A stretch of 64,000 bases of DNA from contig JACPEK010000001.1 in assembly GCA_016183535.1 (NCBI GenBank), forward strand, positions 15,519 to 79,518, given 5' to 3'. This stretch comes from Candidatus Brennerbacteria bacterium. GTDB lineage: Bacteria; Patescibacteriota; Minisyncoccia; UBA6257; GWB1-50-10. This document shows positions 9,479 through 46,508 of this stretch, in pieces. The stretch's first letter is position 1; every line of letters starts with the position of its first letter. The notes below the pieces were generated by a model, which saw nothing but the letters and a program-made list of their open reading frames with translations, did not search any database and was not told the origin of the DNA. The position numbers and the translations under genes were made by a program.

Positions 9479-11998
9479 CTACTTCTCATGGCACTTCTTA
9501 TATTTCTTCCCTGAGCCGCACCAACACGGGTCATTCCTTCCTATGTCTTTCATTTCGGGCGGCGGTGCAACTCTCTGTGGCATTACTCTCATAAGGTCAA
9601 CCTCCAGCACCTGAAAAATGTTTCCGGCGACCATTGTCTCAAACCGACTCTCGAGCCGCTTGAAGAGCGTATGCGCTTCGCGGCGGTATTCCACAAGCGG
9701 TTCGTGTTGGGCGTACGCCCGGATGTTCACTGTCTCGCGGAGTCCCTCGAGATTTTCCAAGTGATCCACCCAAAGCATATCCAAAAGACGCACAAGATGT
9801 TGAGCCGTGAATGCCGCTCGTTCCGAATCCAACATTTCCGGGAGCTTTGCGATCTTTTCTTCGAGCGCGGTAAATGATTTTTCCGCCTCGGCGATATTAT
9901 CCATTCCTTCGCCCTTACTTAACAATTCTCGAGAATTGTTTAACGCTTTCCTCCCCTCCTCCACAAAACGCGAAAGGAGTTCTTTTATCGTCAGAACAAA
10001 CTCCTTTCCATCCGCCTTCAAAAATCTCTCGCGCTTTGCGTAGAACGCGGCGCGCTGTTTATTGAGCACGTCGTCGAAGTCCAGGAGATGCTTTCGGATG
10101 TCAAAGTTCATCCCTTCCACCTTTTCCTGCGCCTGGTTTACCGCTTTCGTCACGAGGCCCGATTCAATCGGTATGTCGTCCGGCACATCGAAAGTCTCCA
10201 TCATTCTCTTGATGCGTTCTCCGCCGAAGATGCGAAGCAGGTCGTCTTCCAAGGAGAGGAAGAACTGCGTGGAGCCGGGGTCGCCTTGTCGCCCGGAACG
10301 GCCGCGGAGCTGGTTGTCGATGCGTCGCGCCTCGTGCCGCTCGGTGCCGATCACGTGGAGGCCTCCCACGTCCATCACCTTTCGACTCTGTTCAGGGTCT
10401 TGGGGGTTTCCTCCTAAGACAATGTCCACGCCGCGTCCCGCCATGTTCGTCGCTACCGTCACCGCGTCTTTCCGTCCTGCCTGTGCGATAATGGCACCCT
10501 CGCGTTCATTGTTCTTCGCGTTCAAAATTTCATGCGGGATGCCTGCCTTCGCAAGCCGCGCCGCGATTTCCTCGTTCTGCACAATCGAGGTGGTGCCAAG
10601 GAGTACCGGCTGACCTTTTTCCTGCCGCGCCTTTACTTCTCTCACCACCGCATCGTATTTCGCATCCTTCGTTTTGTAGATCACATCCGGCACATCTTTC
10701 CTTACGAGCAAACGATTCGGCGGGATCGGTACAACCTCGAGGTTATAGACTTTATGGAACTCCTCGGCGGAGGTTGCGGCGGTGCCGGTCATACCCGCAA
10801 TTTTTTTGTAGAGACGGAAATAGTTTTGGATGGTGATCTGCGCGTACGTGCGGTTCTCTTCCCGTACCAAAACCCCTTCCTTCGCCTCGATGGCTTGGTG
10901 GAGTCCGCCCGAATAACGGCGGCCGTGGAGAATGCGCCCGGTGAACTGATCCACAATCAGCACTTCACCGCTTTTTACCATGTAATCGCGGTCGAGTTTA
11001 AAAAGAGCTTTTGCCTTGAGCGATTCCTCGAGGAAGTGCACGAGACGACTATGTTCGGGTGCGTAGAGGTTTTCTATTTTTAATATTTTCTCCACCTTCT
11101 CGATTCCCTCGTTCGTGATATTTACCGTACGCTGTTTCTCGTCCGCGATATAATCCGTTTCCGCGATGAGGCCCGCCGCCACCTTCGCGAATACTTTATA
11201 AAATTCGCTTGATTGCACATCGGGCGCCGCGATGATTAAAGGCGTCCGTGCCTCGTCTATCAGGATCGAATCAACTTCGTCGATCACGGCATAGTGGTGG
11301 CTCCGCTGGACGCGGTCGGCGAGACGAAGCGCGAGATTGTCGCGAAGGAAGTCGAACCCAAACTCATGGTTGGTGCCATAGGTGATGTCGGCCGTATACG
11401 CTTCTTTCCGCGACACGGGCCGCAGAAATTCCTCGAACACCTTGAAGCTTCCGAATGTATCGCGTTTCTTATCGAGCTCATTCTGCGCGGTCGTGTAGGA
11501 TGGGTCGTAGACGTAGGCGGCGTCGTGCACGAGGCACGCGACCGACACGCCGAGCATATGGTAGATTTGTCCCATCCACACCGCATCGCGTTTTGCGAGG
11601 TAGTCGTTCACAGTGACAATATGCACGCCTTCCCCCGCGAGCGCGTTCAGATATGCGGGCGCGGTTGCCGCCAAAGTTTTTCCCTCTCCCGTCATCATCT
11701 CGGCGATTTTTCCCTCGTGGAGCACCATGCCGCCCATGAGCTGAACGTCATAGTGGCGCTGTTTCAAAGTGCGTTTTGCCGCTTCACGAACAAGCGAAAA
11801 CGCTCCAGGAAGCGCCTCTCCGAGCGCCGCTTCGCCGCTCCCTCCATTCAAAATTTTTTCACGAAGATCCCGCGATCTCTTTTTTAGTTCTTCGTCCGAA
11901 AGTGAAGAAACCGCCGTTTCCTCGGCGTTTACGATTTCTATGGCCGTGCGGAGACGTCCATAGATGCGATTTTCAAATAGTTTGGAGAAAATAGACAC
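9479..11998 (-). CDS. secA: preprotein translocase ATPase SecA
   Basis: 839-aa ORF; DEAD-like motor, ..MTGEGKTL.., C-terminal zinc motif CWCGSGKKYKKCH. Confidence 0.95.
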   Translation of the reverse strand: MSIFSKLFENRIYGRLRTAIEIVNAEETAVSSLSDEELKKRSRDLREKILNGGSGEAALGEALPGAFSLVREAAKRTLKQRHYDVQLMGGMVLHEGKIAEMMTGEGKTLAATAPAYLNALAGEGVHIVTVNDYLAKRDAVWMGQIYHMLGVSVACLVHDAAYVYDPSYTTAQNELDKKRDTFGSFKVFEEFLRPVSRKEAYTADITYGTNHEFGFDFLRDNLALRLADRVQRSHHYAVIDEVDSILIDEARTPLIIAAPDVQSSEFYKVFAKVAAGLIAETDYIADEKQRTVNITNEGIEKVEKILKIENLYAPEHSRLVHFLEESLKAKALFKLDRDYMVKSGEVLIVDQFTGRILHGRRYSGGLHQAIEAKEGVLVREENRTYAQITIQNYFRLYKKIAGMTGTAATSAEEFHKVYNLEVVPIPPNRLLVRKDVPDVIYKTKDAKYDAVVREVKARQEKGQPVLLGTTSIVQNEEIAARLAKAGIPHEILNAKNNEREGAIIAQAGRKDAVTVATNMAGRGVDIVLGGNPQDPEQSRKVMDVGGLHVIGTERHEARRIDNQLRGRSGRQGDPGSTQFFLSLEDDLLRIFGGERIKRMMETFDVPDDIPIESGLVTKAVNQAQEKVEGMNFDIRKHLLDFDDVLNKQRAAFYAKRERFLKADGKEFVLTIKELLSRFVEEGRKALNNSRELLSKGEGMDNIAEAEKSFTALEEKIAKLPEMLDSERAAFTAQHLVRLLDMLWVDHLENLEGLRETVNIRAYAQHEPLVEYRREAHTLFKRLESRFETMVAGNIFQVLEVDLMRVMPQRVAPPPEMKDIGRNDPCWCGSGKKYKKCHEK

Positions 11999-13727: not shown

Positions 13728-14869
13728 ATTACAGTGCGCCGAAGGTGGGCCGGTATGCGAACGAGCGTCTCATAAGGGATCGTACCACACTCGCGTGCGA
13801 TCCGCTCGATTGAATTTACATCGGCGGGATGGTCGCTTATCACCGTTACCGAATCCCCGATCGCGACCTCTCCCGCATGGGTAACATCGCAGAGTGATAT
13901 ATTCATGCTCACATATCCTACAAGAGGCGCCACTTGCCCGTTGAGCAGGAACGCGCCGCGCGACGAAAGACGTCGGTCAATTCCCTCGAAATATCCCACG
14001 GGAACCGTGGCGATTTTCATCGCATGCGGAGCGATAAACGCCGCTCCATAACCTGCAGTGTCGCCTTTCTTCAGTATACGCAGGTCGCTCACCACGGATC
14101 GCATGCGGAGCGCAGGTTCGAATTCCATGGCGAGATTTCCCGGGTTGATGCCATAGAGTGCGATCCCCGGTCGTCCTACATTCGCAATAATGTCGGGGGT
14201 ATGCGCAAAACCCGCGGAGTTGGCGATGTGGTAGAAGCGGATAGAGGGAAGTTCTTCATGTATGCGCCGCGCAATAATATTCCATCGCGTTATCTGCGTT
14301 TCGGTGATTGTCGAATTGGGCGTGCTCGCATCGGCGAAATGGGAAAGGATGCCCTCGACATTCAATTTCTTTTCTCCCTCTTTCATGAGACGCAACGCTT
14401 TGCCCAACTTATCGAACGGGATGCCCTGGCGATGCATACCAGTATCGAATTTTACGTGAATGGATTGTCGCGTGCCGTGCGCCGCAAGCGTTGCGAGCTG
14501 TTCGAGCGAGCCCACGACAAAAGAGGCTCCTCTCCATCGGTTGCGCTCGATCGCTTCGAGGGAAGAGTGCCCAAGGATAAGGAGTGGAGCGCGGATGCCT
14601 TCGCGACGGATCATTTCGGCTTCGAAATACGAATCCACGCAAAGAAACGGTATATGTTCGACGTGTTCCAAGATGCCGGCGACGGCACAAAGTCCGTGTC
14701 CGTATGCATTGCTTTTAAGAACAGGCGCAATTTGCCACTGGGGCGCGAGCCTTTTAAGGGTGTCGAGGTTATGGCGCAACGCGCGTTCTTTTATCTCTAT
14801 TGTGATGAGGGGATGCCAAGGCCGCAATGATTTTTTCCAGTTCCGCAGGTTTGAAAGTAAACGGCGCAT
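13724..14869 (-). CDS. alr: alanine racemase
   Basis: 381-aa ORF; PLP site ..VLKSNAYGHG.. Confidence 0.9.
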   Translation of the reverse strand: MRRLLSNLRNWKKSLRPWHPLITIEIKERALRHNLDTLKRLAPQWQIAPVLKSNAYGHGLCAVAGILEHVEHIPFLCVDSYFEAEMIRREGIRAPLLILGHSSLEAIERNRWRGASFVVGSLEQLATLAAHGTRQSIHVKFDTGMHRQGIPFDKLGKALRLMKEGEKKLNVEGILSHFADASTPNSTITETQITRWNIIARRIHEELPSIRFYHIANSAGFAHTPDIIANVGRPGIALYGINPGNLAMEFEPALRMRSVVSDLRILKKGDTAGYGAAFIAPHAMKIATVPVGYFEGIDRRLSSRGAFLLNGQVAPLVGYVSMNISLCDVTHAGEVAIGDSVTVISDHPADVNSIERIARECGTIPYETLVRIPAHLRRTVI

Positions 14870-15040
14870 GGCGAAAAGTTAGTTTTGGTGGAATTATATA
14901 ACTCTGCTCGAACATTTTTTGAACGGAACCGACCGCCTCCGCTTCGCTCCGGCGGAACGCTCGGGCGCGGCGGAATTACCCCCACACCCCCCCCTTCCGC
15001 CGCGCCCTCGCTTGGCTTCGCAAATTTTTTGGCGGGCAAT

Positions 15041-16024
15041 CTATTGAGCGGGCTTCAACTTCTGCTGTGGTTGTGGCCCGATGAAAACTTGCTGAAATTG
15101 TTTACCCCACGATACGCCGTGTGCACTCTCGTAGAGTTTAACAAATGGGCTGACATTGAAAAAGCCGTTGAGCAAAATATATGCTTCCCACAGCAAATCT
15201 TGAAGTGTCTCGTCCGCAAGTTCTATTTTCAAGCCAAACTCGGAGAGTTTATCCATTGATAGCGGACGAGAGTGCAATAAATGCTTGTCATAGTCCGAAA
15301 AGTAGTTTACTGCTTTTCGGATTTTGCCAACGGCTTTTTTATCGCCTTTGAACATATATCGCTTAAGCCATGTTGATACAAGTTCACGCGATAGCTTTTC
15401 CGAATCTTCGCAAAGTTCCAAAAGATCGAGTGAGTATTTTTCGATGAGCGGGATATAAGCGGGAAGCGTTTCCGGGCCTTCCTTTGCGATACGCTCTTTA
15501 ACTTTTTCAAAACCGCGTTTAATCGAGCGAGCGGGGATGCCGTTGATTTGCGGGTCAATCGGCCCAAGCGTTCCGCTTGGATGCAAAACAATGTTGTTTC
15601 CCGAAAGCGCAAGCATTGTGGCCGCAGAATAAGCCGAGTGCGGAATCAGAAAATTTACCTCGTCGAATTTCCCGCGCAAGAGGCCAACAAGCCGTTCTGT
15701 CGCGTCTGGCCGCCCGCCGGGGCTATGCAATAAAACATCAACGGAGCCGTTTCCTTTTACGGAGTTGATAAGGTCGGTAAAGCCGTCTACATCAGATAAA
15801 TCAATAAAGTTTGGCGCGCCTTGCGGTACGCCTTCCAAAAACTTTGTCGCATAAACCAAAAGCGGGCGGCCACGATGCTTTTCAATTTCCTCGTAGCAAA
15901 CTTTTCGGAGCGCAAATAAATCTTGTCCGGTCGTTCTTTGACCGGACTGTTGCGCTTGGCCGATAAAATCGTTCCAGTCCTGCGCTGTCTTAAATTTTTT
16001 GCGCTGTGGTTGAGGCGACTCCAT
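15041..16024 (-). CDS. SDH-family (serine dehydrogenase proteinase, S49/ClpP-fold) serine peptidase
   Basis: 327-aa ORF; ..VLLHSPGG..HSAYSAATMLALSG.. ClpP/SppA-like nucleophile region; AT-richer than flanks. Confidence 0.55.
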   Translation of the reverse strand: MESPQPQRKKFKTAQDWNDFIGQAQQSGQRTTGQDLFALRKVCYEEIEKHRGRPLLVYATKFLEGVPQGAPNFIDLSDVDGFTDLINSVKGNGSVDVLLHSPGGRPDATERLVGLLRGKFDEVNFLIPHSAYSAATMLALSGNNIVLHPSGTLGPIDPQINGIPARSIKRGFEKVKERIAKEGPETLPAYIPLIEKYSLDLLELCEDSEKLSRELVSTWLKRYMFKGDKKAVGKIRKAVNYFSDYDKHLLHSRPLSMDKLSEFGLKIELADETLQDLLWEAYILLNGFFNVSPFVKLYESAHGVSWGKQFQQVFIGPQPQQKLKPAQ

Positions 16025-16223
16025 ACTGGTTTATTTCAAAATTCAGCGTTGAACCAGTCGCCGTCTTAAAAGCCGGTTTTCTGCCCAGCGCAACATCCGC
16101 CCGATCAATTAGGTCGGTCGTTTCTTTATAGCGGTCGTATGACTTTATGGCTTCCTCGTTCTGCTTCAGAACCTTTTTTGAAGCCACTTTTGTTATCAAT
16201 TTTTGAGGGGTTTTCTTAGCCAT
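15990..16223 (-). CDS. hypothetical small protein (77 aa) upstream of, and overlapping, the SDH peptidase
   Basis: ORF overlaps peptidase start by 35 nt; no known family. Confidence 0.3.
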   Translation of the reverse strand: MAKKTPQKLITKVASKKVLKQNEEAIKSYDRYKETTDLIDRADVALGRKPAFKTATGSTLNFEINQYGVASTTAQKI

Positions 16224-16434
16224 AGTGTTTATACTATACCAAATATAATAGACGGATTCAATGAAGATTTAGTTACTATCTTCCTCGTATTTGTCCATTT
16301 CTCCAAAGAAATCTTTGGCTCGAACCTGCGCTTGGCGAGCCGCGCTGTGCGCGGCGAGCCAGTGTCTCCATACCTTTCCGCGCTTCGCGCGGCCGAATCG
16401 GTCGGGCAAAAATCGGAAAGTTTGATATTGGTGC
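16203..16434 (+). mobile_element. relic of a tRNA-targeting serine-recombinase element (last ~35 codons of the recombinase plus att-like junction at tRNA-Gly)
   Basis: 27-bp identity CCAAAGAAATCTTTGGCTCGAACCTGC (16303-16329) with 43138-43164; encoded ..FSKEIFGSNLRL.. matches recombinase C-termini; TGGTGC core at 16429-16434 abuts tRNA 3' end. Confidence 0.45.
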
Positions 16435-16502
16435 GGAATACGGGAATCGAACCCGTGCTTCTTGCTTGGGAAGCAAGCGTACTGCCACTATACGAATTCC
16501 GC
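16429..16502 (-). tRNA. tRNA-Gly (anticodon CCC)
   Basis: Cloverleaf GCGGAAT..loop TTCCCAA..TTCGATT..ATTCCGC-A-CCA read on minus strand; CCA encoded. Confidence 0.85.
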
Positions 16503-16521
16503 AAAGATGTCACATTGTGTC

Positions 16522-16821
16522 TTACTCCGTACTGGTTGCGGTCGAGGAGCTTTTCGGCGAAGGCGAGACGAGAATAATAAGCTTCTCGTCCGCCGCGCGG
16601 TAATTAAACTGCTCTTTGAGCGCTTTGACAAGATTTTGCTCGTTCTCATAGTACGCGTTGTCGGCCTCAAGCCCGCGGTTCTCCTCCTCGAGCCCGCCGA
16701 GTTCCACGCGAAGCGTGTCCGCCGTATCGCCCACCTTTCCCTTTTCCGCGACTATGCCGTAAACACCCCACCCGAGGAATGCGATGAGAACGATGAATAT
16801 GAGATAGCGCCACGAACCCAT
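16522..16821 (-). CDS. septum formation initiator family protein (FtsB/DivIC-like)
   Basis: 99-aa ORF: N-terminal TM then coiled coil ..LGGLEEENRGLEADNAYYENEQ.. Confidence 0.5.
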   Translation of the reverse strand: MGSWRYLIFIVLIAFLGWGVYGIVAEKGKVGDTADTLRVELGGLEEENRGLEADNAYYENEQNLVKALKEQFNYRAADEKLIILVSPSPKSSSTATSTE

Positions 16822-16856
16822 GATTAAATAAGTAAGAGTGAAGCGAATAGAATAAA

Positions 16857-18668
16857 TTATTTTTTGAGCAATTCCTTAAAGACCGATGGTGCTATTTGTA
16901 CTTCACCCCGCGCTTTGAGACGTTCTTTTCCCCGCTTCTGTTTCTTCCACAGTTTCATTTTCCGCGTTCTATCCCCGCCGTAGAGATACCCCGTGACATC
17001 CTTTTTTAACGCGGAGATATCGTCACGCGCGATAATCCGTCCTTCCGCCGAGGCTTGGAGCGCCTGCGCAAACTGCTGTTTTGGAAGGAGCTCTTTCAAC
17101 CGCGCGAGCATCTGCCGCGCTTCCCGTTCGTGCGCGCTCCGAGGGAAAAAACGCGAAAGTCCCGGCACGCGCGCGCCCGCCACAAGAATGTCCACCTTCA
17201 CCACGTCCGCCGATTGGTACGCTCCGTGTTGGTAGCTAAATGAGGCATATCCTTTGGTCGCCGATTTCAGCTGATCGTCAAAATCCGACACGAGCTCGGC
17301 GAGCGGCATTACGGCGGTGATTTCTGCGCGATCCTCAACGATTTTCGTCTCGACGCTCGTCATGCGGAATTTTTTTTGGAGCGGGAGCACGTTTCCCAAC
17401 TCCGACGCGGGAAGCAATATTAAAAGCTCCACGGTTGGTTCTTCCGCGCTTTTTGCGTCCTCCGGAAAATCTTCCGCCGACTGGATCACTTTCCATTCGT
17501 CTTTCACTTTTACGCGATAGGCCACCGAAGGGAACGTGGTGATGACTTGTACATTGAACTCTCGCCGCAAACGTTCCGTCGCGATCTCGAAGTGGAGACG
17601 ACCCAGAAAACCAACCTGGTACCCGCGCCCCAGCATTTCATTTTGGTCCGGTTTAATAGAAAGCGCGGCATCGTTCAATTTGAGTTTCTCGAGGGCTTTT
17701 GTGAGAAGCTCGTGCTCGTCCGCATCTTCCGGATAGAACGACACAAACACCACGGGTCGCGCCTCTTCGTAGCCAGGAAGCGCATTCAGGATTGGGCCTC
17801 CTTGTTTTACAACTACAATTGTGTCTCCGATACGCACATTGTGAGGCTCGCGAATCCCCGTGGCGACATACCCTATCATTCCAGCCGTAAGCGGTGCGGC
17901 GCTCGTGGTAAGTTCGGGCGCGAAATATCCGATTTCCTTCACCTGCGCGGACGCGTTAGTCGCAAGAAGCCGCGCCATATCCCCCTTTGCGATTGCGCCT
18001 TCGAACACGCGCACGGAAGCGACTACGCCTTTATGGTCATCATAGAATGAATCGAAAATCAACGCTTTCGTGGTTGATAATCGATCGTCAGTGATTGAAA
18101 TCTTTGGAGGAGGGATTTTTTGAATGATGGCCTCCAAAAGTTCTTGCACGCCCTCTCCTGTTTTACCAGAGACTGAAAATATTTCATCCGGAGAACAGTT
18201 TAAAAGTTTTCCTACATCTCGCTTAATCGCCTCGATCCTCTCCGCGCCGCGCGCATCACGAAGCGCGAGATCCACCTTATTTACCGCGCCAACGAGCGTG
18301 AGACCTTCCTTCTTCGCCGCAAGAAGGTTCGCCAAAGTTTGTGCCTGTATGCCCTGCGTGGCATCCACAAGTAAAATACCTCCCTCCACCGCGTGGAGCG
18401 CCCGCGAGACCTCGTACGAGAAATCCGAGTGGCCAGGGGTATCTATCAAATTCAGAATATATTCCGAATCGAATCGTCGATAAACCATGCGCACGGGCGC
18501 CATCTTGATGGTAATGCCCCGCTCCCGCTCGAGCTCCAGTTGGTCCAAGTACTGCGCTTTCATCCGCCGCGCTTCCACCGTTCTCGTCACTTCAAGAAAA
18601 CGATCGGCAAGAGTGGATTTGCCGTGGTCGATATGGGCGATAATAACAAAATTTCTTATATGATTCAT
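16857..18668 (-). CDS. lepA: translation elongation factor 4 (LepA)
   Basis: 603-aa ORF; G-domain AHIDHGKSTL, DTPGH, NKVD; LepA C-terminal domain. Confidence 0.95.
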   Translation of the reverse strand: MNHIRNFVIIAHIDHGKSTLADRFLEVTRTVEARRMKAQYLDQLELERERGITIKMAPVRMVYRRFDSEYILNLIDTPGHSDFSYEVSRALHAVEGGILLVDATQGIQAQTLANLLAAKKEGLTLVGAVNKVDLALRDARGAERIEAIKRDVGKLLNCSPDEIFSVSGKTGEGVQELLEAIIQKIPPPKISITDDRLSTTKALIFDSFYDDHKGVVASVRVFEGAIAKGDMARLLATNASAQVKEIGYFAPELTTSAAPLTAGMIGYVATGIREPHNVRIGDTIVVVKQGGPILNALPGYEEARPVVFVSFYPEDADEHELLTKALEKLKLNDAALSIKPDQNEMLGRGYQVGFLGRLHFEIATERLRREFNVQVITTFPSVAYRVKVKDEWKVIQSAEDFPEDAKSAEEPTVELLILLPASELGNVLPLQKKFRMTSVETKIVEDRAEITAVMPLAELVSDFDDQLKSATKGYASFSYQHGAYQSADVVKVDILVAGARVPGLSRFFPRSAHEREARQMLARLKELLPKQQFAQALQASAEGRIIARDDISALKKDVTGYLYGGDRTRKMKLWKKQKRGKERLKARGEVQIAPSVFKELLKK

Positions 18669-18685
18669 GATGTTGTTTTTTATTC

Positions 18686-20785
18686 TTACTGCTTTGTAAG
18701 CGTGAGATTTACTATCAAACGGCCAGGAATATCATCCGTCTCGTACGCAAAACGTGAGGTTTCGGTTTCCCGCCATGTGAAGCCGACGGGTGCCGCGATG
18801 GTAAGTGAGAGTTTGGTAGGCACGCCCGACTGTCGCTCGTAAACGAAGGTGTACCCCTCCCCCGCTTTCGACCCCTCCCCCGTTTTTCCGGGCGTCTGGT
18901 AGCGAACCTCAAGCGTGCGTGATTTTCCCGCCGCGACATTCATCCACGCCGCAAAGGCTTTTTTACCGAACGCGTTAAAGGTCCACGCCTGGAAATCGGA
19001 GGCAAACTTTTTGGTCATCTCGATAGATTTTTCAGCGGGGTAGAGATGTTCAACTTCCCGCGCGGTGAGTTCGGTTCCTTTCGGAGCGGGATCGTTGCCT
19101 TTTGTAAACACCAACTCCGCGGAAGGCGGCGTATAAATTTGAATATAGTTACGATTCGTGGCGCGCCAGAAAAGCTCGCGTTCGAGATCGCCACGATGCG
19201 TGCGCGTTACCGAGACGTCGGTCAGAAAAGCGCCATCGGTTGCAATATCCACGTATATATCCACTTTCTGTGTAATTACAAAATCGCTTTTTTTGCCGTC
19301 GAGATTTGCGTCTACCACGGCGAGGTAGTTGCCCCAAAATCCCGACGGCAGAGAATAGACGCCGCCGTCCCCTCCCGCATCCCGGATGAAGCGCGCAAGT
19401 TTCGGTTCGCGCGCGTAGAACATGAGATCTTTACGCTCGTAGTGGGTTTTGAGCATGTGAACGAGGTCTGTGGGCGTCTCTCCGTCCAGACTCGCCAAGC
19501 GTTCAAGGAGCACGGGGGTGAGTGCCTGCAGGATGCGTTTCGGTTTCCCCGCCGCTTTATCTTTGCCGAGCTCCACCTCGCGTTGAACTTCACGGAGAAA
19601 GTTTTCGTCGTCCAAAACAAGATTGTATTCGGAAAGCGCTACTGGCCCCGTTGCGTTGAGAAGCGATTCGATAACCGTGAAGTTCACTCCGATCACCATA
19701 TCGAACTTCACGCCGTAGTCCTCGTACATCTTGGAGGCTTCTATGAGGGACAAAACGGCTTCGGCGGAGGTCGGAAAATCGAAAAACCAATTTGCATCCC
19801 GCGCCTTCCATTCCGTCCATTCGCCGAAGGCTTCGGGCGAGCGGTATCCCGCGGCCAGTTGGCCATCCGGGTCGTAAATGTCGCGCACGTCAAGTTTTTG
19901 CATCGCGCCGTTCCGGACGGTGAGGTCCGCATAACTTCCGAGGAATCCTCCCGCCGGCCGTATCTCCGAAGGATTTTGAAACATGAGAAGAATGTGGCGA
20001 TCCGTGTCGGATGAGAGAAGCGAGGTGAGGGCGCCGAGGAATTCATCAAGCGCGTAAAGCTTCCCACTCCACGCGAGATAGCGTTCTCCCACGAATGAAT
20101 CGAGTGTGTCGAAGTATGGAGCGACCGACTTCAGCCGTCCCGTCGCGTTCTTAATATTCTGTGCGCTTGCGATTATCGCCTGGAGCGCTCGTCGCGCGTC
20201 CGAGAGTGAAGCGAGTATCGCGACACCATCACCCATGAACGAGACGAGTCCCTCCGCGCGGAGCGTCGCGAGTGAGTTCGTGAGCGCAAGGAAATTTGCG
20301 TTCACATTGATTGTGTCGCGCGCGAGCGACGCGGCTTCTCCAACGGCCGGCACGACTCCGCCCAAAACCCCCGCGAATGACGGTCCGTCGCGCGTCCCGA
20401 TGATCTTTGAAAATTTTTCGAGCTCCTCCTCATTTGCCTCAAAGTGCGTTGAAGCGGCCACAAAATCAAGCGTTTTAAGCGCGTCGACAGCCCGTGAGAA
20501 ATGATCGGCAATCGAAGTGCCGTGTCCGACGAGCGCGCTTCTTGCGGCGCGGAACCCCGCATAGAGCCCTCCCGTTCCCACGACGAGTGTGGCGATCACC
20601 GTAAACATAACGAGGCGCGCCTTTGCGGTATGAAAACGAGATGAGCGTTTCGGGGCGGTGAGATGTGCGCGGTGTGCGAGTAAAACCACGGGTTTGCCGA
20701 GCGCCTTACGGTGAGCCCCCCGCGGTCCTTTTACGTCTACCATTATCGGTTCGATATTCCGTTTTGATACCTTGATGCGCGTCAT
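18686..20785 (-). CDS. DUF4012-like large envelope protein (N-terminal TM anchor)
   Basis: ORF 18686..20839; ATG at 20785 minimises overlap with the GT4 gene; ~700 aa with TM helix LVMFTVIATLVVG. Confidence 0.55.
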   Translation of the reverse strand: MTRIKVSKRNIEPIMVDVKGPRGAHRKALGKPVVLLAHRAHLTAPKRSSRFHTAKARLVMFTVIATLVVGTGGLYAGFRAARSALVGHGTSIADHFSRAVDALKTLDFVAASTHFEANEEELEKFSKIIGTRDGPSFAGVLGGVVPAVGEAASLARDTINVNANFLALTNSLATLRAEGLVSFMGDGVAILASLSDARRALQAIIASAQNIKNATGRLKSVAPYFDTLDSFVGERYLAWSGKLYALDEFLGALTSLLSSDTDRHILLMFQNPSEIRPAGGFLGSYADLTVRNGAMQKLDVRDIYDPDGQLAAGYRSPEAFGEWTEWKARDANWFFDFPTSAEAVLSLIEASKMYEDYGVKFDMVIGVNFTVIESLLNATGPVALSEYNLVLDDENFLREVQREVELGKDKAAGKPKRILQALTPVLLERLASLDGETPTDLVHMLKTHYERKDLMFYAREPKLARFIRDAGGDGGVYSLPSGFWGNYLAVVDANLDGKKSDFVITQKVDIYVDIATDGAFLTDVSVTRTHRGDLERELFWRATNRNYIQIYTPPSAELVFTKGNDPAPKGTELTAREVEHLYPAEKSIEMTKKFASDFQAWTFNAFGKKAFAAWMNVAAGKSRTLEVRYQTPGKTGEGSKAGEGYTFVYERQSGVPTKLSLTIAAPVGFTWRETETSRFAYETDDIPGRLIVNLTLTKQ

Positions 20786-21921
20786 TGTTTTCGCACCGAT
20801 TCGAAGCAGGCAAGTGTTTTCCTGGCGGCCGTCTCCCACGAAAAGCGCGCGATGTTTGCAAATCCCGCGATTCGCAAACGTTCCGCCTCCCCGTTTCGCG
20901 AAAGTACCACGTCGATCGCCTCTGCCAGTTTGTCAGAACGGTGAGGATCGGCAAGGAGCGCGCTCGCGCCGAGCACTTCCGGGAGCGAACCGCCCGTCGA
21001 AGCCACAACCGGACATCCGCACGCTTGAGCCTCAAGGGGCGGGAAACCGAATCCCTCGTAGAACGAGGGGTATACGAACACCGCGGCGGTATTATAGAGC
21101 ATAAGAACGTCTTCCTTGCTCGCGGGACCCCAAAAGCGGATAGTGTTGCGGTACGGCGATTCCCGAAATGCTTTTACTACGTCGCCATAGAGCCACCCTA
21201 GTCTCCCCGCCACGACAAATCCGAAATCACGATAGGCAGGTTTGCGTTTTAAGAGATGAAAAGCTTCGAGTGCGCCGAGGACATTTTTGCGAGGCTCTAT
21301 GGTGCCCACATACAACATAAACGGCTTTGTGAGATTTTTTTCGACTCGGAAACGCGTGAGAATAAAATCGTGAGATGGGAGCGCCTGATAGCGTGGCGAA
21401 ATGCCCGAATGAATCATTGAAATATTTTCCTTCGGCACGTTCCAGAGTGAAATAAGATCTTGTTTTGTCGCTTCGGATACCGCGATCAGATGGCACGCGC
21501 GTTCAACCTGATGACGCACGTCTTGCGCCGCGTGCCAGAGTCGCTTTCCTCGCGGGAAGAAAAGCGGAAAACGCACGAACGAGAGATCGTGGATGGTAAT
21601 GATCCGGCGGGCGCGAGACGTGAATTTTAAAAGGTTGAAATGAGGACTGAAGTAGAGATCTGCCCGCGCGAGGCGATCCACTTTTGGAAATGATAAAAGA
21701 CGGAACGAAACATCGAGTAATCGGTTCGGCACTCCCCAATTCACGGAGGGAATTTTTCTCCACGCGCGTGGAAGTTTGAAAGTGTGCCAACCGTTCGTAA
21801 AAATTTGGTAGCGGTTTTTTTCGTCGATCTCAAAAAGCTTCGAGAAGAGATTAAGAGTGTACTCTTCTATGCCGGTGTGCACGCCGGAAAAAAGGAGGCG
21901 CGCGTCGAGAAGAATTTTCAT
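20782..21921 (-). CDS. glycosyltransferase family 4
   Basis: 379-aa ORF; GT4 C-terminal motif ..EGFGFPPLEAQACGCPVV.. Confidence 0.85.
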   Translation of the reverse strand: MKILLDARLLFSGVHTGIEEYTLNLFSKLFEIDEKNRYQIFTNGWHTFKLPRAWRKIPSVNWGVPNRLLDVSFRLLSFPKVDRLARADLYFSPHFNLLKFTSRARRIITIHDLSFVRFPLFFPRGKRLWHAAQDVRHQVERACHLIAVSEATKQDLISLWNVPKENISMIHSGISPRYQALPSHDFILTRFRVEKNLTKPFMLYVGTIEPRKNVLGALEAFHLLKRKPAYRDFGFVVAGRLGWLYGDVVKAFRESPYRNTIRFWGPASKEDVLMLYNTAAVFVYPSFYEGFGFPPLEAQACGCPVVASTGGSLPEVLGASALLADPHRSDKLAEAIDVVLSRNGEAERLRIAGFANIARFSWETAARKTLACFESVRKQ

Positions 21922-23078
21922 TGGTGCGCGATATTAATTGATGCGGAAACGGCCCGGTGAATCACGCGATTAATATTCTCCACAAAGGCGCTTTTGGAAA
22001 ACCTGCGGGCGCGCGCCGCAATGACGTATGGATCAAACTGCAGGTTTTCAAACCGTCTTACTGCATCCACGATCGCTTCCGGCGTTTGGGAATGAAACTG
22101 GATTCCAGTCGTTCCATCCTCCACGATTTCGACGCCACCGCCCTTGCGGTATGCAATGACGGGCGTACCGCACGCCTGGGCCTCCGCGGCGACAAGGCCA
22201 AAATCCTCGATTTGAGGAAAAATAAGCGCTTTCGCTCCCCTGTACCGCGCGCGAAGCTCTTCATCGGAAATGTTTTTGACGAATGTGATGAGCGGCGCTA
22301 CCGCAAGTTTTTTCAACTTCACTTCTTCGGGACCCGCACCGATCACCATAAGCGCGCGTCCCAGCTTATTGAAAGCGCGAATACCGAGATCAAACCGCTT
22401 GTAGGAAAGGAGGCGTCCGGCCATCAGGTAATAGTTTTTGGTTGTTCGTTGATTGGTTTTTAGTTCCCCTCTCGTAAGCGGTTTCCAGAATTCGGTATCG
22501 ACGGGCGGATAAATAATCTCCGCTTCGCGGTCGTAATAAGCGCGGATTTTATCCGCAATAAAACGTGAATTTGCGAGAAATACGTCGACTCTGTCTGCCG
22601 CGCGCCGATCCCATCGCTGGAGCGCCCGCGCGAGAGGCTTCAAAACGGCTTCACGCAATGGCCAGGGAGAAAAAGGTATGTTTTTGAGGTAGTCGAATTC
22701 CCATGCGTAGCGGAGCGGGCTGTGACAATAACTTATATGCGTGGCGCCCGCAATGGCAAAACCTTTCGCGTAACCGGCGGAAGAAGACAGTACGAGATCA
22801 TAAAAATTCCCCGCGCGTGCGGCGGTCGGTTGGCTAGGTCTGACGGTGGCGGCCGCGAGCGGCATGAGAGGGATAAATGCGCGGTGGTGATGCCGCACGA
22901 ACGGCACATCGATCCGACTCGTCCCGGTCACGCGGCCTTCGAAAACCCCGCGCGTGCGCGCGGGATCGTACAGTAAAGTGAAAAGATCGGCTTTCGGGAA
23001 CATCCCAAGAAACACTTCAAGCACCCGCTCCGCACCCCCGTACTGATTCAAATAGTCGTGGAGGATGGCAACCCGCAT
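21918..23078 (-). CDS. glycosyltransferase family 4
   Basis: 386-aa ORF; ..EDFGLVAAEAQACGTPVIA..; overlaps neighbour by 4 nt. Confidence 0.85.
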   Translation of the reverse strand: MRVAILHDYLNQYGGAERVLEVFLGMFPKADLFTLLYDPARTRGVFEGRVTGTSRIDVPFVRHHHRAFIPLMPLAAATVRPSQPTAARAGNFYDLVLSSSAGYAKGFAIAGATHISYCHSPLRYAWEFDYLKNIPFSPWPLREAVLKPLARALQRWDRRAADRVDVFLANSRFIADKIRAYYDREAEIIYPPVDTEFWKPLTRGELKTNQRTTKNYYLMAGRLLSYKRFDLGIRAFNKLGRALMVIGAGPEEVKLKKLAVAPLITFVKNISDEELRARYRGAKALIFPQIEDFGLVAAEAQACGTPVIAYRKGGGVEIVEDGTTGIQFHSQTPEAIVDAVRRFENLQFDPYVIAARARRFSKSAFVENINRVIHRAVSASINIAHQ

Positions 23079-23113
23079 CGTTTTATCATTGTATCTGTTT
23101 TGCCGAAACGCGG

Positions 23114-23704
23114 CTATACACCCGTCGGATCGGTCAAAAAAATCACAACCGTTTTCCAGAGAATCTTCAGATCTAACCCGAGCGAAGCGTTTTTCAGGTA
23201 GGTGGCGTCATATTCAAGTTCTGCGAGAAACGGGAGCGCGGAGGCGCCCATGACCTGCGAGAGTCCCGTGAGGCCCGCCTTCGCGTTCGCGAGATGTTTG
23301 AATTCGGGCGGGTAGGCGGCGACCTCCTCCGGCTCGTGCGGACGTGGACCTATGAGCGTCAGTTCCCCCTTGAGTACGTTCCAAAATTGTGGAAATTCAT
23401 CCACGCGGAGCATGCGGAGCAATCTCCCGATTTTGGTGAGGCGCGGATCGTCCTTGATTTTGAAAAAAGGCCCATCGTTCCTTTCGTTGAGGTGAGAGAG
23501 ACTTGTTTTCATTGTCGAAGCTCCCTTTATCATCGTTCTGAACTTCCATACTCGCACAAGCCTCCCCTCGCTCACGCGCGCGAGCCCCACAAAGATCGGG
23601 CGTCCGCTTTCCCGCGCGATCGCGAGTGCGATGAATGGTGTAAATGGCGCAACGAACGCGAGTCCGCACAATGCGCCGACAACATCAAGGATCCTCTTTG
23701 TCAT
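23114..23704 (-). CDS. polyprenyl-phosphate sugar phosphotransferase (bacterial sugar transferase family)
   Basis: ATG at 23704 (MTKRILDVVGA..); C-terminal sugar-transferase domain ..IGPRPHEPEE..; overlaps rsmI stop. Confidence 0.85.
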   Translation of the reverse strand: MTKRILDVVGALCGLAFVAPFTPFIALAIARESGRPIFVGLARVSEGRLVRVWKFRTMIKGASTMKTSLSHLNERNDGPFFKIKDDPRLTKIGRLLRMLRVDEFPQFWNVLKGELTLIGPRPHEPEEVAAYPPEFKHLANAKAGLTGLSQVMGASALPFLAELEYDATYLKNASLGLDLKILWKTVVIFLTDPTGV

Positions 23705-24372
23705 GGGATGATGAGGACAAATTCTCCGCGGCCTCGGGGGCCGGTAAAACGCCCTGGGGCATCTCCTACCTCCCCGCTCCATACCTCTTCATGTACCTTC
23801 GTGAGTTCGTGGGCCACCACAATCAACGCTTTATCTCCCAATATGCTCGCAAGCGCGTTGAGGGTTTTTAGGAGACGGTGGGGCGATTCATAAATCACAA
23901 GCGGGCGTACGGTGATGGTGGAAAGCGATGAAAAAAACGTATTTCTCCCCTTTTTTGCCGGAGGATAGCCAAGAAACGTAAAACGTTCCGCGGGAACACC
24001 GGCTACAGAAAGCGCCGCGGTGATTGCTGAAGGCCCAGGAACGGCGACGATGGGAACGGCGGGAAGCGCCGTCCGGATCGCGGTGACGAGCCGACTCCCC
24101 GGATCGGCGATTGCGGGTGTGCCGGCATCCGTTACCACCGCTACTGCCATGCCTTGAATGAGCATATCCCGTATCTCCGTGAATCCGCGCGTGTGAGAGT
24201 GTTCGTCATATCTCCGTACGGGCGCGCCGATGCCATATCGTGAAAGAAGTTTTCTCGCCACGCGCGTATCTTCCGCATAGATAAGATTCGCGGTTTTAAG
24301 CGTCTCAAGAGCCCGAAGAGTAATGTCCTTCAGGTTGCCTATCGGGGTCGCCACAAGATAAAGTGTCCCCAT
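23701..24372 (-). CDS. rsmI: 16S rRNA (cytidine1402-2'-O)-methyltransferase RsmI
   Basis: 223-aa ORF; tetrapyrrole-methylase fold ..LYLVATPIGNLKDIT.. Confidence 0.85.
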   Translation of the reverse strand: MGTLYLVATPIGNLKDITLRALETLKTANLIYAEDTRVARKLLSRYGIGAPVRRYDEHSHTRGFTEIRDMLIQGMAVAVVTDAGTPAIADPGSRLVTAIRTALPAVPIVAVPGPSAITAALSVAGVPAERFTFLGYPPAKKGRNTFFSSLSTITVRPLVIYESPHRLLKTLNALASILGDKALIVVAHELTKVHEEVWSGEVGDAPGRFTGPRGRGEFVLIIP

Positions 24373-24398
24373 GCCGCGAGATCCTTTGGAATCCGCGG

Positions 24399-24719
24399 CT
24401 ACGCTTTAAGCCGCTCTCTTATTTTTCTATTCGAAAATCCACGCAGATAATAAAGTTTTCCTTTGTGTACTTTTTTGGGACTGGAAAGTACTTGAATCCG
24501 CGCGAGGGTAGGCGTGTGGAGCGGAAAAACCTTCTCAACCCCCACTTCGTGGATCATCGCCCGTACCGTAAAGCTTCCTCCAGCCTCACTCCCATGCTGG
24601 CGGGCAAGCACAATGCCTTCGAACGCACTTTCGCGCTCTTTCCCTCCTTCCTTGATGCGTTCCCAGACACGCACGCGAGCTCCCGGACGTATTTTTTTCT
24701 GAATTTCAGAATCAATCAT
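24399..24719 (-). CDS. rplS: 50S ribosomal protein L19
   Basis: 106-aa ORF; ..FEGIVLARQHG..FTVRAM..GVEKVFPLHTP..KLYYLR. Confidence 0.9.
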   Translation of the reverse strand: MIDSEIQKKIRPGARVRVWERIKEGGKERESAFEGIVLARQHGSEAGGSFTVRAMIHEVGVEKVFPLHTPTLARIQVLSSPKKVHKGKLYYLRGFSNRKIRERLKA

Positions 24720-24809
24720 AACTTCTAGAGTTTAGCGGTTCGTCCGTTCTGTGTCAAATGGAAAAAGAACTCTTTTCCCGCTCCATTGCTCGTTTTTTTG
24801 ATCTTTTAC

Positions 24810-24837
24810 TTGAAAATGCCGGATGATATGGTATACT
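24810..24837 (+). promoter_or_regulatory. candidate promoter TTGAAA-16-TATACT for the 3D-domain gene
   Basis: -35 24810-24815, -10 24832-24837; would give a near-leaderless transcript for ATG 24848. Confidence 0.35.
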
Positions 24838-24847
24838 TACGGCATTG

Positions 24848-25405
24848 ATGAAAAGCACCCTGCGGAAGGGCGTTTTTTATTGGAAACGCCACCATATGTT
24901 ATCGTACATCCTTGCGGCGGTGACCGCGGCCATGGTTTTTGTGGTTGCTCCCCCCGGCGCGGTGGAAGAAAAAGCGGCGGGAGTTGCGGAAGCGCATGCG
25001 CAAGCGGCCGAATCAAGTTTAACGGCGGTGACCGCGGCAAGGTCCTCCCAAGACCATTCCGGTAGCGTTTCAAAAACGCTCTCGGCGTGGGTAACGGCGT
25101 ATTCTTCAACGCCCGAGGAAACCGATGAGACTCCTTTTCTCACGGCGCGCAATACGGAGGTGCGGGACGGCATCGTGGCCACAAATTTCCTTCCCTTCGG
25201 GACGAGGATCATGATTCCCGAGCGCTTCGGCCAAAAAGTGTTCATCGTGGAAGACCGGATGCACCGCCGGAAGACCAATTTCGTGGACGTCTGGATGTCC
25301 ACCAAGGAAGCGGCGAAGGAATTTGGTATTTCTTTCACCACCATCGTGGTGCTCGAGAAAGGCCACAATGCCGTGGCGAGCGTTCACGAAGCGGCGGCCG
25401 ACTAG
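24848..25405 (+). CDS. 3D domain-containing (RlpA/MltA-like double-psi beta-barrel) secreted protein
   Basis: ORF opens with TTG 24845 then ATG 24848; signal-anchor MMKSTLRKGVFYWKRHHMLSYILAAV..; 3D domain ..WVTAYSSTPEETDETPFLTA.. Confidence 0.7.
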   Translation: MKSTLRKGVFYWKRHHMLSYILAAVTAAMVFVVAPPGAVEEKAAGVAEAHAQAAESSLTAVTAARSSQDHSGSVSKTLSAWVTAYSSTPEETDETPFLTARNTEVRDGIVATNFLPFGTRIMIPERFGQKVFIVEDRMHRRKTNFVDVWMSTKEAAKEFGISFTTIVVLEKGHNAVASVHEAAAD

Positions 25406-25424
25406 GCGCCCTTCCGGGGCGTCT

Positions 25425-25748
25425 TTAGTTTATGGCGTCTATCTTAGCCGCGAGGATAAAATCGTTCTCGGACAAGCCGCCGATCGCGTGTGTCCAAAGT
25501 TCCACCACTACCTTTCCCCACGAGAGCTGAAGGTCGGGGTGGTGGTCTTCCGTTTCCGCGATCTCCCCTATTTTGTTCGCGAACGCGAGCGCCTGCGTGA
25601 AATTGGAAAACGCGAACTCTTTTCTTATCTTTTTGGCGTCTATCACTCCCCATCCCTTTACTTCCTTGAGATAGCGCTCGAGCGCCATACCTTGAAGCGC
25701 CGACATTCCACCGTCACACGCCGCGCATTTCTTCAAGAGGAGATCCAT
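25425..25748 (-). CDS. pterin-4-alpha-carbinolamine dehydratase
   Basis: 107-aa ORF; ..EDHHPDL.. signature. Confidence 0.85.
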   Translation of the reverse strand: MDLLLKKCAACDGGMSALQGMALERYLKEVKGWGVIDAKKIRKEFAFSNFTQALAFANKIGEIAETEDHHPDLQLSWGKVVVELWTHAIGGLSENDFILAAKIDAIN

Positions 25749-35138: not shown

Positions 35139-35746
35139 TGCGTAATTTTTCCCGCGCGGCGTTCGATGATATCCGCCGGCCGCAGTTTCGTCCCTGCCGG
35201 AACAATCTGAAAATGAGGGGCGCGGTCGAGTTTGTCTATGAGATCCCAAAGATCTTTTTTTGATGTAAGCCAATCCCGTTTATACAGGAGGAGATCAAAC
35301 GGCGCAGAATGACTTTTGAGCGTTTTGCGTCCGTTGTCGAGAAAGTATTCATGGAAATATGACATCGTGAGCTCGCGCGGCGAAACATACACAGGCTCGC
35401 GATAGCGGAGCACGGCATGATTGGTTTTGCTCACCGCGCCCCAGCGGCCGCCGCGTTTGAAGAGTGCCACCACATGGCTCTCATCGCCGCGCCCCGTTTT
35501 TAAATCCAAGAGGAACGGGCGTTCTCCGTGATACCAGAACGCGGCGGCGGCGAGGAGCGCACCTTCTATGCAGTGGGCCGTCCCGACGCGAAGGGTCGTA
35601 AGCGGCGAGCGGCACGTGCTTCCCTTTCGTTCAAAGTTGATCGGGAATGTTTCAACAAAGTCCTGCACACGCGCCGGCGTGTTGAGTTTTTTAAAAACCG
35701 AAAACGCTCCGAGGTATTGGGCCGGAAAACGCTTCATGCCGGCCAT
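35126..35746 (-). CDS. hypothetical protein with papain/transglutaminase-like Cys..His signature
   Basis: 206-aa ORF; ..GTAHCIEGALLAAAAF.. then ..GDESHVVALF.. Confidence 0.4.
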   Translation of the reverse strand: MAGMKRFPAQYLGAFSVFKKLNTPARVQDFVETFPINFERKGSTCRSPLTTLRVGTAHCIEGALLAAAAFWYHGERPFLLDLKTGRGDESHVVALFKRGGRWGAVSKTNHAVLRYREPVYVSPRELTMSYFHEYFLDNGRKTLKSHSAPFDLLLYKRDWLTSKKDLWDLIDKLDRAPHFQIVPAGTKLRPADIIERRAGKITQWKR

Positions 35747-35764
35747 TATAACCCGCTTTTGCCG

Positions 35765-46193: not shown

Positions 46194-46508
46194 GTACCGC
46201 TTTTTAAAAACCTCTCACGCGCTCGCACTTCTTTACAGTTTGCCCGCCAAGGACGGGTGAATCTGCCGGCTTGGCCGCCAGTGAGCGGCTTTCGCCACCC
46301 GCGCAAACCCCACGAGAACGAATATATACGCCGCGAGAATCTTATTTAATACCTGATGATTTTTCAATGATAATAGGCACCGGTACGTTGTTTCGGCTAA
46401 AAAAGTAGCCGGCGGCGAAGCTCACGGTGAGGGCAAGCACGAGCGTGGCCCACGCAAGAGGTTTCACAAAGCGTTCCGGCACGGGAATTTTCTTTGCGCG
46501 GAAAAACA

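Follow-up and report, generated by a model that had tools for sequence, protein, structure and literature searches.

Archaeal integrases of the SSV1 type are tyrosine recombinases that target a tRNA gene and whose attP lies inside the integrase gene, which is cut by integration into two non-functional parts. The yeast 2-micron plasmid, which uses the tyrosine recombinase Flp, has two unique segments located between inverted copies of its recombination site. Structural work on the LI integrase reportedly revealed that the zinc-ribbon motif is offset by half a turn in attP half-sites compared with those of attB, and the chromosomal site of the phiRSM recombinase is said to be the 3′ end of a tRNA gene. 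The enzyme of this filamentous phage is a resolvase-like serine recombinase according to the account in PMC7192596 (its reference 22, Askora et al. 2011). Tycheposons of Prochlorococcus are small cargo elements found at tRNA genes, where they insert one after another at the same tRNA and leave degraded remnants; they are flanked by partial tRNA copies and use mostly a tyrosine recombinase, a minority having a large serine recombinase (LSR) (bioRxiv 10.1101/2020.12.28.424599).

The locus described here lies in a window of 64,000 nt, the whole stretch of DNA that was analysed, from a Candidatus Brennerbacteria bacterium (GCA_016183535.1, JACPEK010000001.1, 15,519–79,518 of the forward strand; positions below are those of the window). 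Its segment 14886–16434 is, with a probability that we estimate at about 0.8, a decayed and immobile copy of a small LSR-type integrative element of tRNA 3′ ends. What is left at tRNA-Gly is a left core with its P′ arm (14886–14983), two cargo genes and the last ~44 codons of a recombinase gene. Judged from its sequence, the relic is a derivative of an LSR element and not a functional member, as the recombinase domains are absent. A deletion of ~1.5–1.6 kb would have eliminated recombinase codons 1 to ~440 together with the inverted repeat inside the element, and the relic is probably unable to move by itself. Its mobilisation in trans is unlikely because the only intact recombinase of the window belongs to another subfamily and has a different arm beside the core.

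The remnant of the recombinase was recognized at the right end. The 27-mer CCAAAGAAATCTTTGGCTCGAACCTGC at 16303–16329 is found again at 43138–43164, inside a truncated recombinase gene, exactly as stated in an earlier sequence-only reading of this DNA. The identity extends to neither side and ~2.6e-7 pairs of this kind are expected by chance in the whole window; self-BLASTN lengthens the match to 35/37 over 16303–16338 / 43138–43174 (E 9e-8). The motif GGCTCGAACC is present in six copies in the window (16317, 43048, 43152, 44347(−), 45858, 45959; 0.22 expected), the one at 16317–16326 (+) being the second of the two in-ORF copies of the family. The frame encoding ...SKEIFGSNLRLASRAVR...LILV enters tRNA-Gly just as the intact 504-aa recombinase (44615–46129) enters tRNA-Leu, an arrangement that the same reading had correctly described. 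A tail HMM of this recombinase subfamily (104 independent tails) detected two places only in a six-frame search of the window: the known truncated gene and 16182–16574(+) (E 1.9e-6). In the latter the first 16 residues match strongly and the last 19 weakly, yet ordered and in frame; the mid-tail fits the subfamily profile weakly. Independent proteins of the subfamily (P0208, P0123, P0198) were aligned by tblastn to 16302–16463. On this evidence the recombinase 3′ end remnant (P arm; ...KEIFGSNLRLASRAVR...ALRAAESVGQKSESLI(LV)) was assigned to 16303–16428 (+). It is followed by the right core (attR) TGGTGC at 16429–16434 (+) which, as anticipated, is the reverse complement of the 3′ end GCACCA of the integration target, tRNA-Gly(ccc) (16429–16502, −; ARAGORN, Rfam 68 bits). 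The homologous remnant (16303–16434) amounts to ~44 codons and not to the “last ~35 codons” first proposed. Its tail has an internal deletion of ~10 codons relative to the closest relatives. Recombinase homology begins at 16302/16303 and cargo homology stops at 16245–16251; these limits bracket the deletion junction (16252–16302), which resembles neither the cargo relatives nor recombinase genes. Further recombinase parts were searched for in 14870–16302 and none was detectable. There is no convincing intrinsic terminator downstream of tRNA-Gly, a role for the tail that was dropped, and Rfam scans of 14700–16700 and 41400–46300 identified tRNAs only.

At tRNA-Gly, GGCTCGAACC and the core begin 112 nt apart; at tRNA-Leu the same measure gives 111 nt. 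The near-equal spacing reported earlier is thus real, while the values then given (103 and 101 nt) correspond to other reference points. Its use as a proof of kinship was rejected: the pair 112 and 111 fits the intact subfamily, whereas spacings in the subfamily that the relic resembles by its sequence are 145–157 nt. The copy of GGCTCGAACC at 43152 in the truncated recombinase is spaced by 157 nt from its core, so that equal spacing is not a trait of the subfamily most like the relic. The spacing match may be accidental.

At the left end, the core (attL) TGGTGG was read directly at 14886–14891 (+), 16 nt ahead of where the alanine racemase gene (alr) starts, in the position where TGGTGC, TGGTGT or TGGTGG cores precede the same type of arm in related loci. 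The P′ arm (14892–14983, +), identified by arm similarity and by its translation, is of the X2 type, with TCGAAC 23–28 nt from the core start. Positions 14909–14983 share 92% identity (75 nt, E 6.7e-27) with the L094 sequence found directly after the tail-TGGTGC of an intact recombinase gene; the X2 arm is also present in L089 and L129. The translation of the arm (VELYNSARTFFERN) matches the post-core tails of P0045 (ARTFFERN) and P0124, and an independent Logan contig (L001) contains alr with the first 27 nt of the arm. When tested against intact family members, both arms are homologous and correctly placed (the left one by the L094 arm, the right one by the tail profile and the 27-mer). No partial tRNA-Gly copy is found near 14886, where only the 5–6 nt of the core are repeated, and position 6 is not the same in both cores (TGGTGG on the left, TGGTGC on the right).

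The cargo module (14964–16250, −) is composed of two overlapping genes with promoter-like and hairpin flanks, including a promoter-like site at 16261–16233(−). Its nucleotide identity is 91% to L169 (window 14964–16245) and 86% to L166 (14997–16251). One gene is an intact ORF for an SDH-type ClpP-like serine protease of 327 aa (15041–16024, −; Pfam PF01972, E 9e-17) that has 1,075 homologues, the best of them 98% identical. An exact-protein look-up gave no identical record for this protease nor for the intact recombinase. The protease start is overlapped by the intact frame of a 77-aa protein with no assigned function (15990–16223, −); the same gene, of 74–77 aa, also precedes the protease in L166, L167, L168 and L169 (62–91% identity). 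PADLOC (anti-phage defence models) found no match for the protease, the 77-aa protein or the recombinase, and Pfam none for the 77-aa protein. Elsewhere, the cargo genes have restriction-modification genes, a toxin-antitoxin pair and integrase genes as neighbours. The protease is cargo in 0 of 80 recombinase-bearing loci sampled, and arms are missing from most of the other places where the module occurs; an arm-like sequence in L169 is suggestive only. Loss of the catalytic part of the recombinase with retention of the cargo, as originally claimed, is supported by the ~44 remaining codons and the intact cargo ORFs.

Reference elements are found at the tRNA-Leu array of the same window. A second decayed element has a left core (TGGTGT) followed by an X3-type arm (41553–41619, +) that is 81% identical over 67 nt to the post-recombinase arm in L150 (E 5e-11). 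The truncated recombinase that shares the 27-mer (42618–43308, +) comprises ~230 codons from the zinc ribbon onward; it was detected by tblastn with P0208, P0152 and others, it aligns to residues 312-end of the intact gene, and it is 100% identical to a Candidatus Brennerbacteria protein. A core with an X1 arm (43309–43399, +), 97% identical to arms at 37 loci, forms the left end of the intact element and is a perfect inverted repeat of 44388–44478. The latter belongs to an inverted internal copy of the whole attP (44388–44570, −), made of the X1 arm, GCACCA and the last 92 nt of the recombinase ORF, in which 44473–44570 is the reverse complement of 45978–46075 (98 nt, 100%). In the intact 504-aa LSR (44615–46129, +; Pfam Resolvase, Recombinase and Zn_ribbon_recom) the TGGTGC core is read as codons 486–487 (W-C), and the ORF stops within tRNA-Leu(gag) (46070–46156, −). 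The gene of a close relative of this recombinase, P0001, sits at a contig end where the left junction is not visible. A scan of viral contigs gave two partial N-terminal matches. Reading of TGA as a sense codon was considered to explain why the truncated subfamily is known from fragments only, and was rejected as L172 has the whole gene, broken by several frameshifts.

The recombinase family comprises >7,800 protein clusters (74–92% identity) across Patescibacteria (Azam-, Kuenen-, Jorgensen-, Moran- and Parcubacteria); a full-text literature search found no published description of it. Its proteins, 488–656 aa long, end with ...WC followed by the translated tRNA T-arm. The core codons are W-C in frame, and L-V in a sister subfamily. 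A tRNA 3′ end is abutted by 48/64 family genes, covering 20 anticodons, and an encoded CCA is found in 42/45 recombinase-adjacent tRNA genes versus 42/165 others. From left to right, an intact copy shows the host flank, core, P′ arm, one small cargo segment, an inverted copy (P′ arm, core and last ~100 nt of the recombinase gene), the recombinase gene, core and tRNA. The upstream inverted tail copy was found in 48 of 60 related loci and the arm pair flanks variable cargo (0.7–2.1 kb) at 36 loci, while left junctions share 2–7 nt with the core (mode 4, GTGC). That the cargo and recombinase segments are two independent IS-like units was also considered; it is a possible but less favoured reading, because different genomes and tRNAs show the same conserved arm beside the inverted tail copy and because the arm pair and the tail pair co-occur. 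The synonymous positions of GGCTCGAACC are nearly invariant in 70 related genes and frozen in two reading frames.

These observations lead us to a tentative and broader proposal, somewhat less probable than not if its four parts are taken together: the relic might be the fossil of an undescribed class of CPR serine-recombinase elements. Members of this class would consist of two segments, one for cargo and one for the recombinase, each within perfect ~90–100 bp inverted repeats; their recombinase frame would pass through attP; the in-gene copies of GGCTCGAACC would be T-arm mimics, putative extra binding sites for the recombinase at the DNA level; and their insertion would recode the tRNA gene to encode CCA. 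The two-segment build predicts an excised circle with two inverted attP that could enter a tRNA 3′ end via either of them, and both insertion isomers expected from such sites are seen. Strand exchange probably takes place in the last 2–3 bp of the core, in which case the element supplies the TGG giving the tRNA gene its encoded CCA. The tail would stay beside the tRNA after loss of the enzyme because the CCA is encoded by the insertion.

The lepA-p99-tRNA-Gly(ccc) order is kept in most of the 80 relative genomes inspected, none of which has a full-size recombinase gene, this protease or alr downstream of the tRNA. In the two closest genomes the segment is absent: a different gene is found 4 nt past tRNA-Gly in L019, and a ~200-bp insert followed by a different gene in L061. 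Their tRNA-Gly orthologues have no encoded CCA (...CCCGCA continues with CTA in L019 and with CAA in L061). In L016 the orthologous tRNA-Gly also has short tail relics. The neighbours of tRNA-Gly in L019 and L061, a tgl-rluB-M23 block, sit at 35746–30904 in the window. Due to this block swap tRNA-Gly has a neighbour other than alr in the closest genomes, so there is no clean empty site. The comparison with relatives suggested by the sequence-only reading shows the segment to be absent beside tRNA-Gly (80 genomes), but no clean empty site between alr and tRNA-Gly was seen. The tail HMM, the left arm, the intact cargo and the relatives without the segment all support its interpretation of the locus as a decayed element.

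It is rather unlikely that two different insertions are represented here, one behind the left part with core, arm and cargo, the other behind the right part with tail and tRNA-Gly, brought together when two elements, or the internal attP of one element and another site, recombined; the joining event would also have removed the recombinase and shifted the neighbouring chromosome block. In the comparison with L019 and L061, the block swap breaks exactly at the tRNA-Gly 3′ end, and integrated members retain an inverted attP that is complete and could recombine with the ends of other tRNAs. The difference at position 6 of the cores also counts against a single integration, as they should be identical if exchange occurred at positions 5–6, but one base change after integration accounts for it equally well. 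Furthermore, other breakpoints (e.g., 35746–35765) have no visible att-like remnant, and the size and order of the segment are those of one element with an internal deletion.

That the segment is a non-autonomous mobilisable cassette (CIME-/MITE-like), which kept exactly the cis sites (P′ arm and motif-to-core tail) for a recombinase acting in trans to move the cargo, is improbable. Both arms and both cores are present, recombinase homology begins just 14 nt upstream of GGCTCGAACC and the motif-core spacing of 112 nt is close to the family norm of 111. However, the cores mismatch, the ~25 nt of the arm beside the core are unlike the matching arm of the window’s single intact recombinase, the tail carries its ~10-codon deletion, and no second recombinase-less copy of such layout was found at any of the tRNAs of 165 loci.

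An assembly chimera, in which sequences repeated among elements of the metagenome (arms, hairpins, tRNA) caused a false join, is more improbable still. The continuity from cargo to tail to tRNA is that of one metagenome-assembled contig, the exact protease has no record, and two independent Logan assemblies, identical in alr and lepA, have contigs that end at 14913 and 16464. Unitig assemblies are nevertheless expected to break at repeated k-mers, the alr-arm junction was reproduced independently, and arm, cargo, tail and tRNA follow the order of the family. A chance or generic likeness of tRNA-flanking sequences, favoured by nothing except the short length of the exact match, is negligible in view of the expectation for the 27-mer (2.6e-7), the profile (E 1.9e-6), the arm (E 7e-27) and six motifs against 0.22 expected, and the objection to this effect that had been foreseen fails.

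Dead elements beside tRNA genes are routine; the interest of a decayed LSR-type element at tRNA-Gly lies in the family exposed by the relic, which may be a main route for the movement of single genes among reduced CPR genomes. Serine integrases that both recognize the conserved T-arm/CCA end of many tRNAs and tolerate rewriting of their own C-terminus by the target are uncommon, and could interest integrase engineers. Relics of such elements are a record of past insertions, and they appear to coincide with breakpoints of chromosome rearrangements and with CCA-encoding tRNA genes.

The family resembles the large serine integrases of phages and other elements (Bxb1, phiC31, Listeria A118/LI) by its succession of Resolvase, Recombinase and zinc-ribbon domains followed by a coiled-coil region, by short attachment sites with few common bases and by a gene beside attP that reads toward it. 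Compared with the tRNA, the element arm has its conserved TCGAAC 4–5 nt farther away from the core, a shift that fits the half-turn offset mentioned above for the LI integrase. Unlike those integrases, the family targets the 3′ ends of many different tRNAs, has its core within the ORF, so that the last residues and the stop codon vary with the integration site, keeps a second, inverted attP internally and has two in-ORF GGCTCGAACC sites fixed at synonymous positions. The catalytic domain is N-terminal and followed by a large C-terminal region, in contrast to the small IS607-type serine transposon enzymes with N-terminal DNA-binding and C-terminal catalytic parts. With tycheposons the family shares small cargo-bearing elements that insert successively at a tRNA gene and leave remnants behind, but its junctions share just 2–7 nt, without a partial tRNA, and it has two segments bounded by inverted repeats. 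The phiRSM recombinase is likewise a serine enzyme directed to a tRNA 3′ end, although it is small, of the resolvase type, phage-borne and has a single tRNA target. As in SSV1-type integrases, a tRNA gene is targeted and the recombinase frame contains the attachment site, but only the residues past codon 487 are exchanged. Finally, the predicted excised circle would have the organization of the 2-micron plasmid, with two unique segments and two inverted copies of the site; the family differs from it in being an integrative element with a serine recombinase.

The decayed recombinase element between alr (alanine racemase gene) and tRNA-Gly(ccc) occupies positions 14886-16434. Its sequence at 16303-16329 is exactly the one found at 43138-43164, inside a truncated recombinase gene next to the tRNA-Leu element. 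About 2.6e-7 such 27-mer pairs are expected by chance. The similarity extends further: self-BLASTN of the window gives 35/37 identical positions in this region (E 9e-8), independent recombinase proteins align to 16302-16463, and a profile of 104 independent gene tails of the truncated subfamily matches 16182-16574(+) with an E value of 1.9e-6. Within this match KEIFGSNLRLASRAVR is strong and ALRAAE-SVGQKSESLILV weak, yet they come in order, in frame and end at the core, a TGGTGC hexamer (16429-16434) that is the reverse complement of the GCACCA 3′ end of tRNA-Gly(ccc) (16429-16502, minus strand). Counted from the first base of the GGCTCGAACC motif (see below), the core begins after 112 nt, versus 111 nt at tRNA-Leu.

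The tRNA-Leu locus encodes a 504-aa large serine recombinase (44615-46129, plus strand; Resolvase, Recombinase and zinc-ribbon domains). In this gene, codons 486-487 (W-C) are TGGTGC and the final 17 codons read as the reverse complement of tRNA-Leu(gag). Relatives of the protein in Patescibacteria number more than 7,800, with 74-92% identity. Nearly all family proteins (488-656 aa) end with ...FP.WC followed by variable residues, e.g. G(E/D)(D/E)SN(L/P), that are the translated reverse complement of the tRNA T-arm. Among 80 metagenome loci, 64 genes had enough right flank: 48 abut the 3′ end of an opposite-strand tRNA, with 20 different anticodons represented, and the other 16 abut conserved non-tRNA arms (types X1, X2 and X3). 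With the tRNA at right, the family layout is a variable flank, (G)TGC, an X arm, 0.7-2.1 kb with one variable gene, the inverted X arm, GCACCA, an inverted copy of the recombinase gene's final ~99 nt, 31-67 nt, the recombinase gene, TGGTGC and the tRNA. Of 60 loci, 48 have the inverted tail copy (median repeat 99 nt); the arm pair occurs in 36 loci (median 86 nt). These repeats are usually near-perfect inside one locus and different between loci. In two loci (L098, L121) the recombinase segment is arranged as the mirror image. From the family layout, excision between the two outer junctions is predicted to yield a circle with two inverted attachment sites (attP), and entry through either of them would account for both isomers. 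The intact element (43309-46075) shows exactly the family layout. Its inverted repeats of 91 nt (43309-43399 with 44388-44478) and 98 nt (44473-44570 with 45978-46075) are both perfect and leave an entire attP, inverted, shortly before the recombinase gene, a layout kept in 36-48 related loci. The sequence CCGCCAAAG has four of its five copies in the window inside this element (43417, 44374 (-), 44709, 44757 (+); 0.94 expected in the whole window), one of them being a synonymously frozen run of the recombinase gene (codons 32-35, AAKE). In a 296-aa protein (P0124), probably a deletion fusion, a DnaB N-terminal domain is followed by a recombinase tail whose frame continues past the core into an arm (...ILVRLFDKIRTYFERN).

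Six copies of GGCTCGAACC are present in the window (16317, 43048, 43152, 44347, 45858-45867 and 45959-45968) versus 0.22 expected. Each recombinase gene holds the motif twice, read as W-L-E-P in one copy and as G-S-N in the other, with a spacing of 101 nt in 68/68 cases. Leu is encoded by CTC and Glu by GAA in 73/73 genes, and Gly by GGC, Ser by TCG and Asn by AAC in 69-70 out of 70; the Pro, His and Ala codons beside the motif vary freely. The mean synonymous entropy of conserved degenerate codons across the gene is 0.81 bit and just 13% are frozen, S-W-L-E being one of only three frozen runs. Invariant synonymous sites in two frames indicate that GGCTCGAACC is selected at the nucleic-acid level, for a function in DNA or RNA, and its resemblance to the reverse complement of the tRNA T-arm makes it a putative recombinase-binding site. 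The last ~30 recombinase codons are also largely frozen, as an attP arm would predict. Left junctions have 2-7 nt in common with the core, most often GTGC; in one variant, whose core is TGGTGT, the identity is limited to GT. Such short identities argue for strand exchange within the final 2-3 bp of the hexamer, the element presumably supplying TGG. The CCA end is encoded in 42/45 (93%) of the tRNA genes adjacent to a recombinase or tail versus 42/165 (25%) of the others, counting all tRNAs in L006-L165 (retrieved loci) and the window, an excess consistent with this donation. The TCGAAC of the arm lies 4-5 nt farther from the core than that of the tRNA T-loop; serine integrases are known for such an offset between their attP and attB half-sites.

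The left end of the relic is a TGGTGG core at 14886 followed by an arm. The X2 arm found directly after an intact recombinase in L094 is 92% identical to 14909-14983 (E 7e-27), and the arm translation (...ARTFFERN) is identical to the post-core tail of a full-length, 500-aa recombinase (P0045). An independent Logan contig contains alr together with the adjoining first 27 nt of this arm. Between the two ends lies a module of two genes, one for an SDH-type ClpP-like protease (PF01972) and one for a 77-aa protein. The module is 91% identical in DNA to L169 over 14964-16245, and its size (1.3 kb) and strand (not that of the recombinase but the opposite one) fit the family cargo position. Compared with the family layout, the relic lacks the inverted arm, the inverted copy of the tail and codons 1 to ~440 of the recombinase; 16252-16302 is the scar of the lost segment. 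The sequence-only reading of a decayed element, its recombinase tail running toward tRNA-Gly with the catalytic part gone and the cargo left, is right, down to the 27-mer, the spacing and the core; what is added here is the boundary on the left, the background of the family and the caveats. The gene pair occurs widely: there are 1,075 homologues, of which many are 70-98% identical, and most lie on short contigs. Its neighbours in L166, L167, L168 and L169 include genes for a tyrosine integrase, a PhD/PIN pair, restriction-modification and HTH regulators, which suggests a mobile module, possibly one that serves in defence or addiction.

The order lepA-p99-tRNA-Gly(ccc) is kept in most of 80 genomes retrieved with LepA; in the 8 kb downstream, a full-size recombinase gene, the relic protease and alr are each absent from all 80. 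In the two closest genomes, L019 and L061 (LepA identity 86% and 84%), tRNA-Gly ends with ...CCCGCA|CTA or |CAA and a transglutaminase-like gene (tgl) follows, 4 nt off in L019 and past a ~200-bp insert in L061. The tgl-rluB-985aa-M23 block directly after tRNA-Gly in these genomes is found in the window at 35746-30904(-), beyond the lepA block (16429-25635) and beside a MacB-like permease gene. Its displacement indicates that the chromosome is rearranged, with a breakpoint exactly at the tRNA-Gly 3′ end. The rearrangement weakens the argument from an empty tRNA-Gly site. Given this breakpoint and the one-base difference between the two relic cores, the relic may, less probably, have a composite origin. 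In L016, two short recombinase-tail relics (10206-10310) lie after the orthologous tRNA-Gly(ccc). They stand head-to-head around a GC hairpin, an arrangement that would result if the gene separating the inverted tail copies were lost; tRNA-Gly(ccc) has thus been used more than once. The L061 insert (10140-10367), around which the 19-nt tRNA-Gly 3′ end (TTCCCGTATCCCGCACAAA) is duplicated, resembles the trace of another type of element, one whose insertion duplicates the end of the tRNA.

The truncated gene (42618-43308) preserves ~230 C-terminal codons of another, divergent recombinase. Its product is 28% identical to the 504-aa protein over the shared part and 100% identical to a protein from a Candidatus Brennerbacteria genome. 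The gene belongs to an older decayed element (41553-43308) whose left end is marked by a TGGTGT core and an X3-type arm (41553-41619); the ~1 kb after this arm has no convincing gene. No full-length gene of this subfamily was found in two very large protein collections, which yielded fragments only (P0121-P0240, P0361-P0506). The 120 matches listed from the word index are all at most 341 aa long and, among the matches listed from an exhaustive search of 1.84 billion representatives, those of at least 480 aa are all at most 37% identical. A full-length copy in L172 (4111-5681) carries several frameshifts, its C-terminal ~226 codons being still open. The lineage appears, from these fragments and this copy, to survive only as pseudogenes.

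The intact element inserted later, between the tail of the truncated recombinase and tRNA-Leu. Full-text searches of the literature gave no description of these tRNA-targeting recombinase elements. Their closest published analogue is the tycheposon, for which successive insertion at one tRNA has been described (bioRxiv 10.1101/2020.12.28.424599), as in the tRNA-Leu array. The relic in itself is nothing unusual; the family behind it is a new form of serine-integrase elements.
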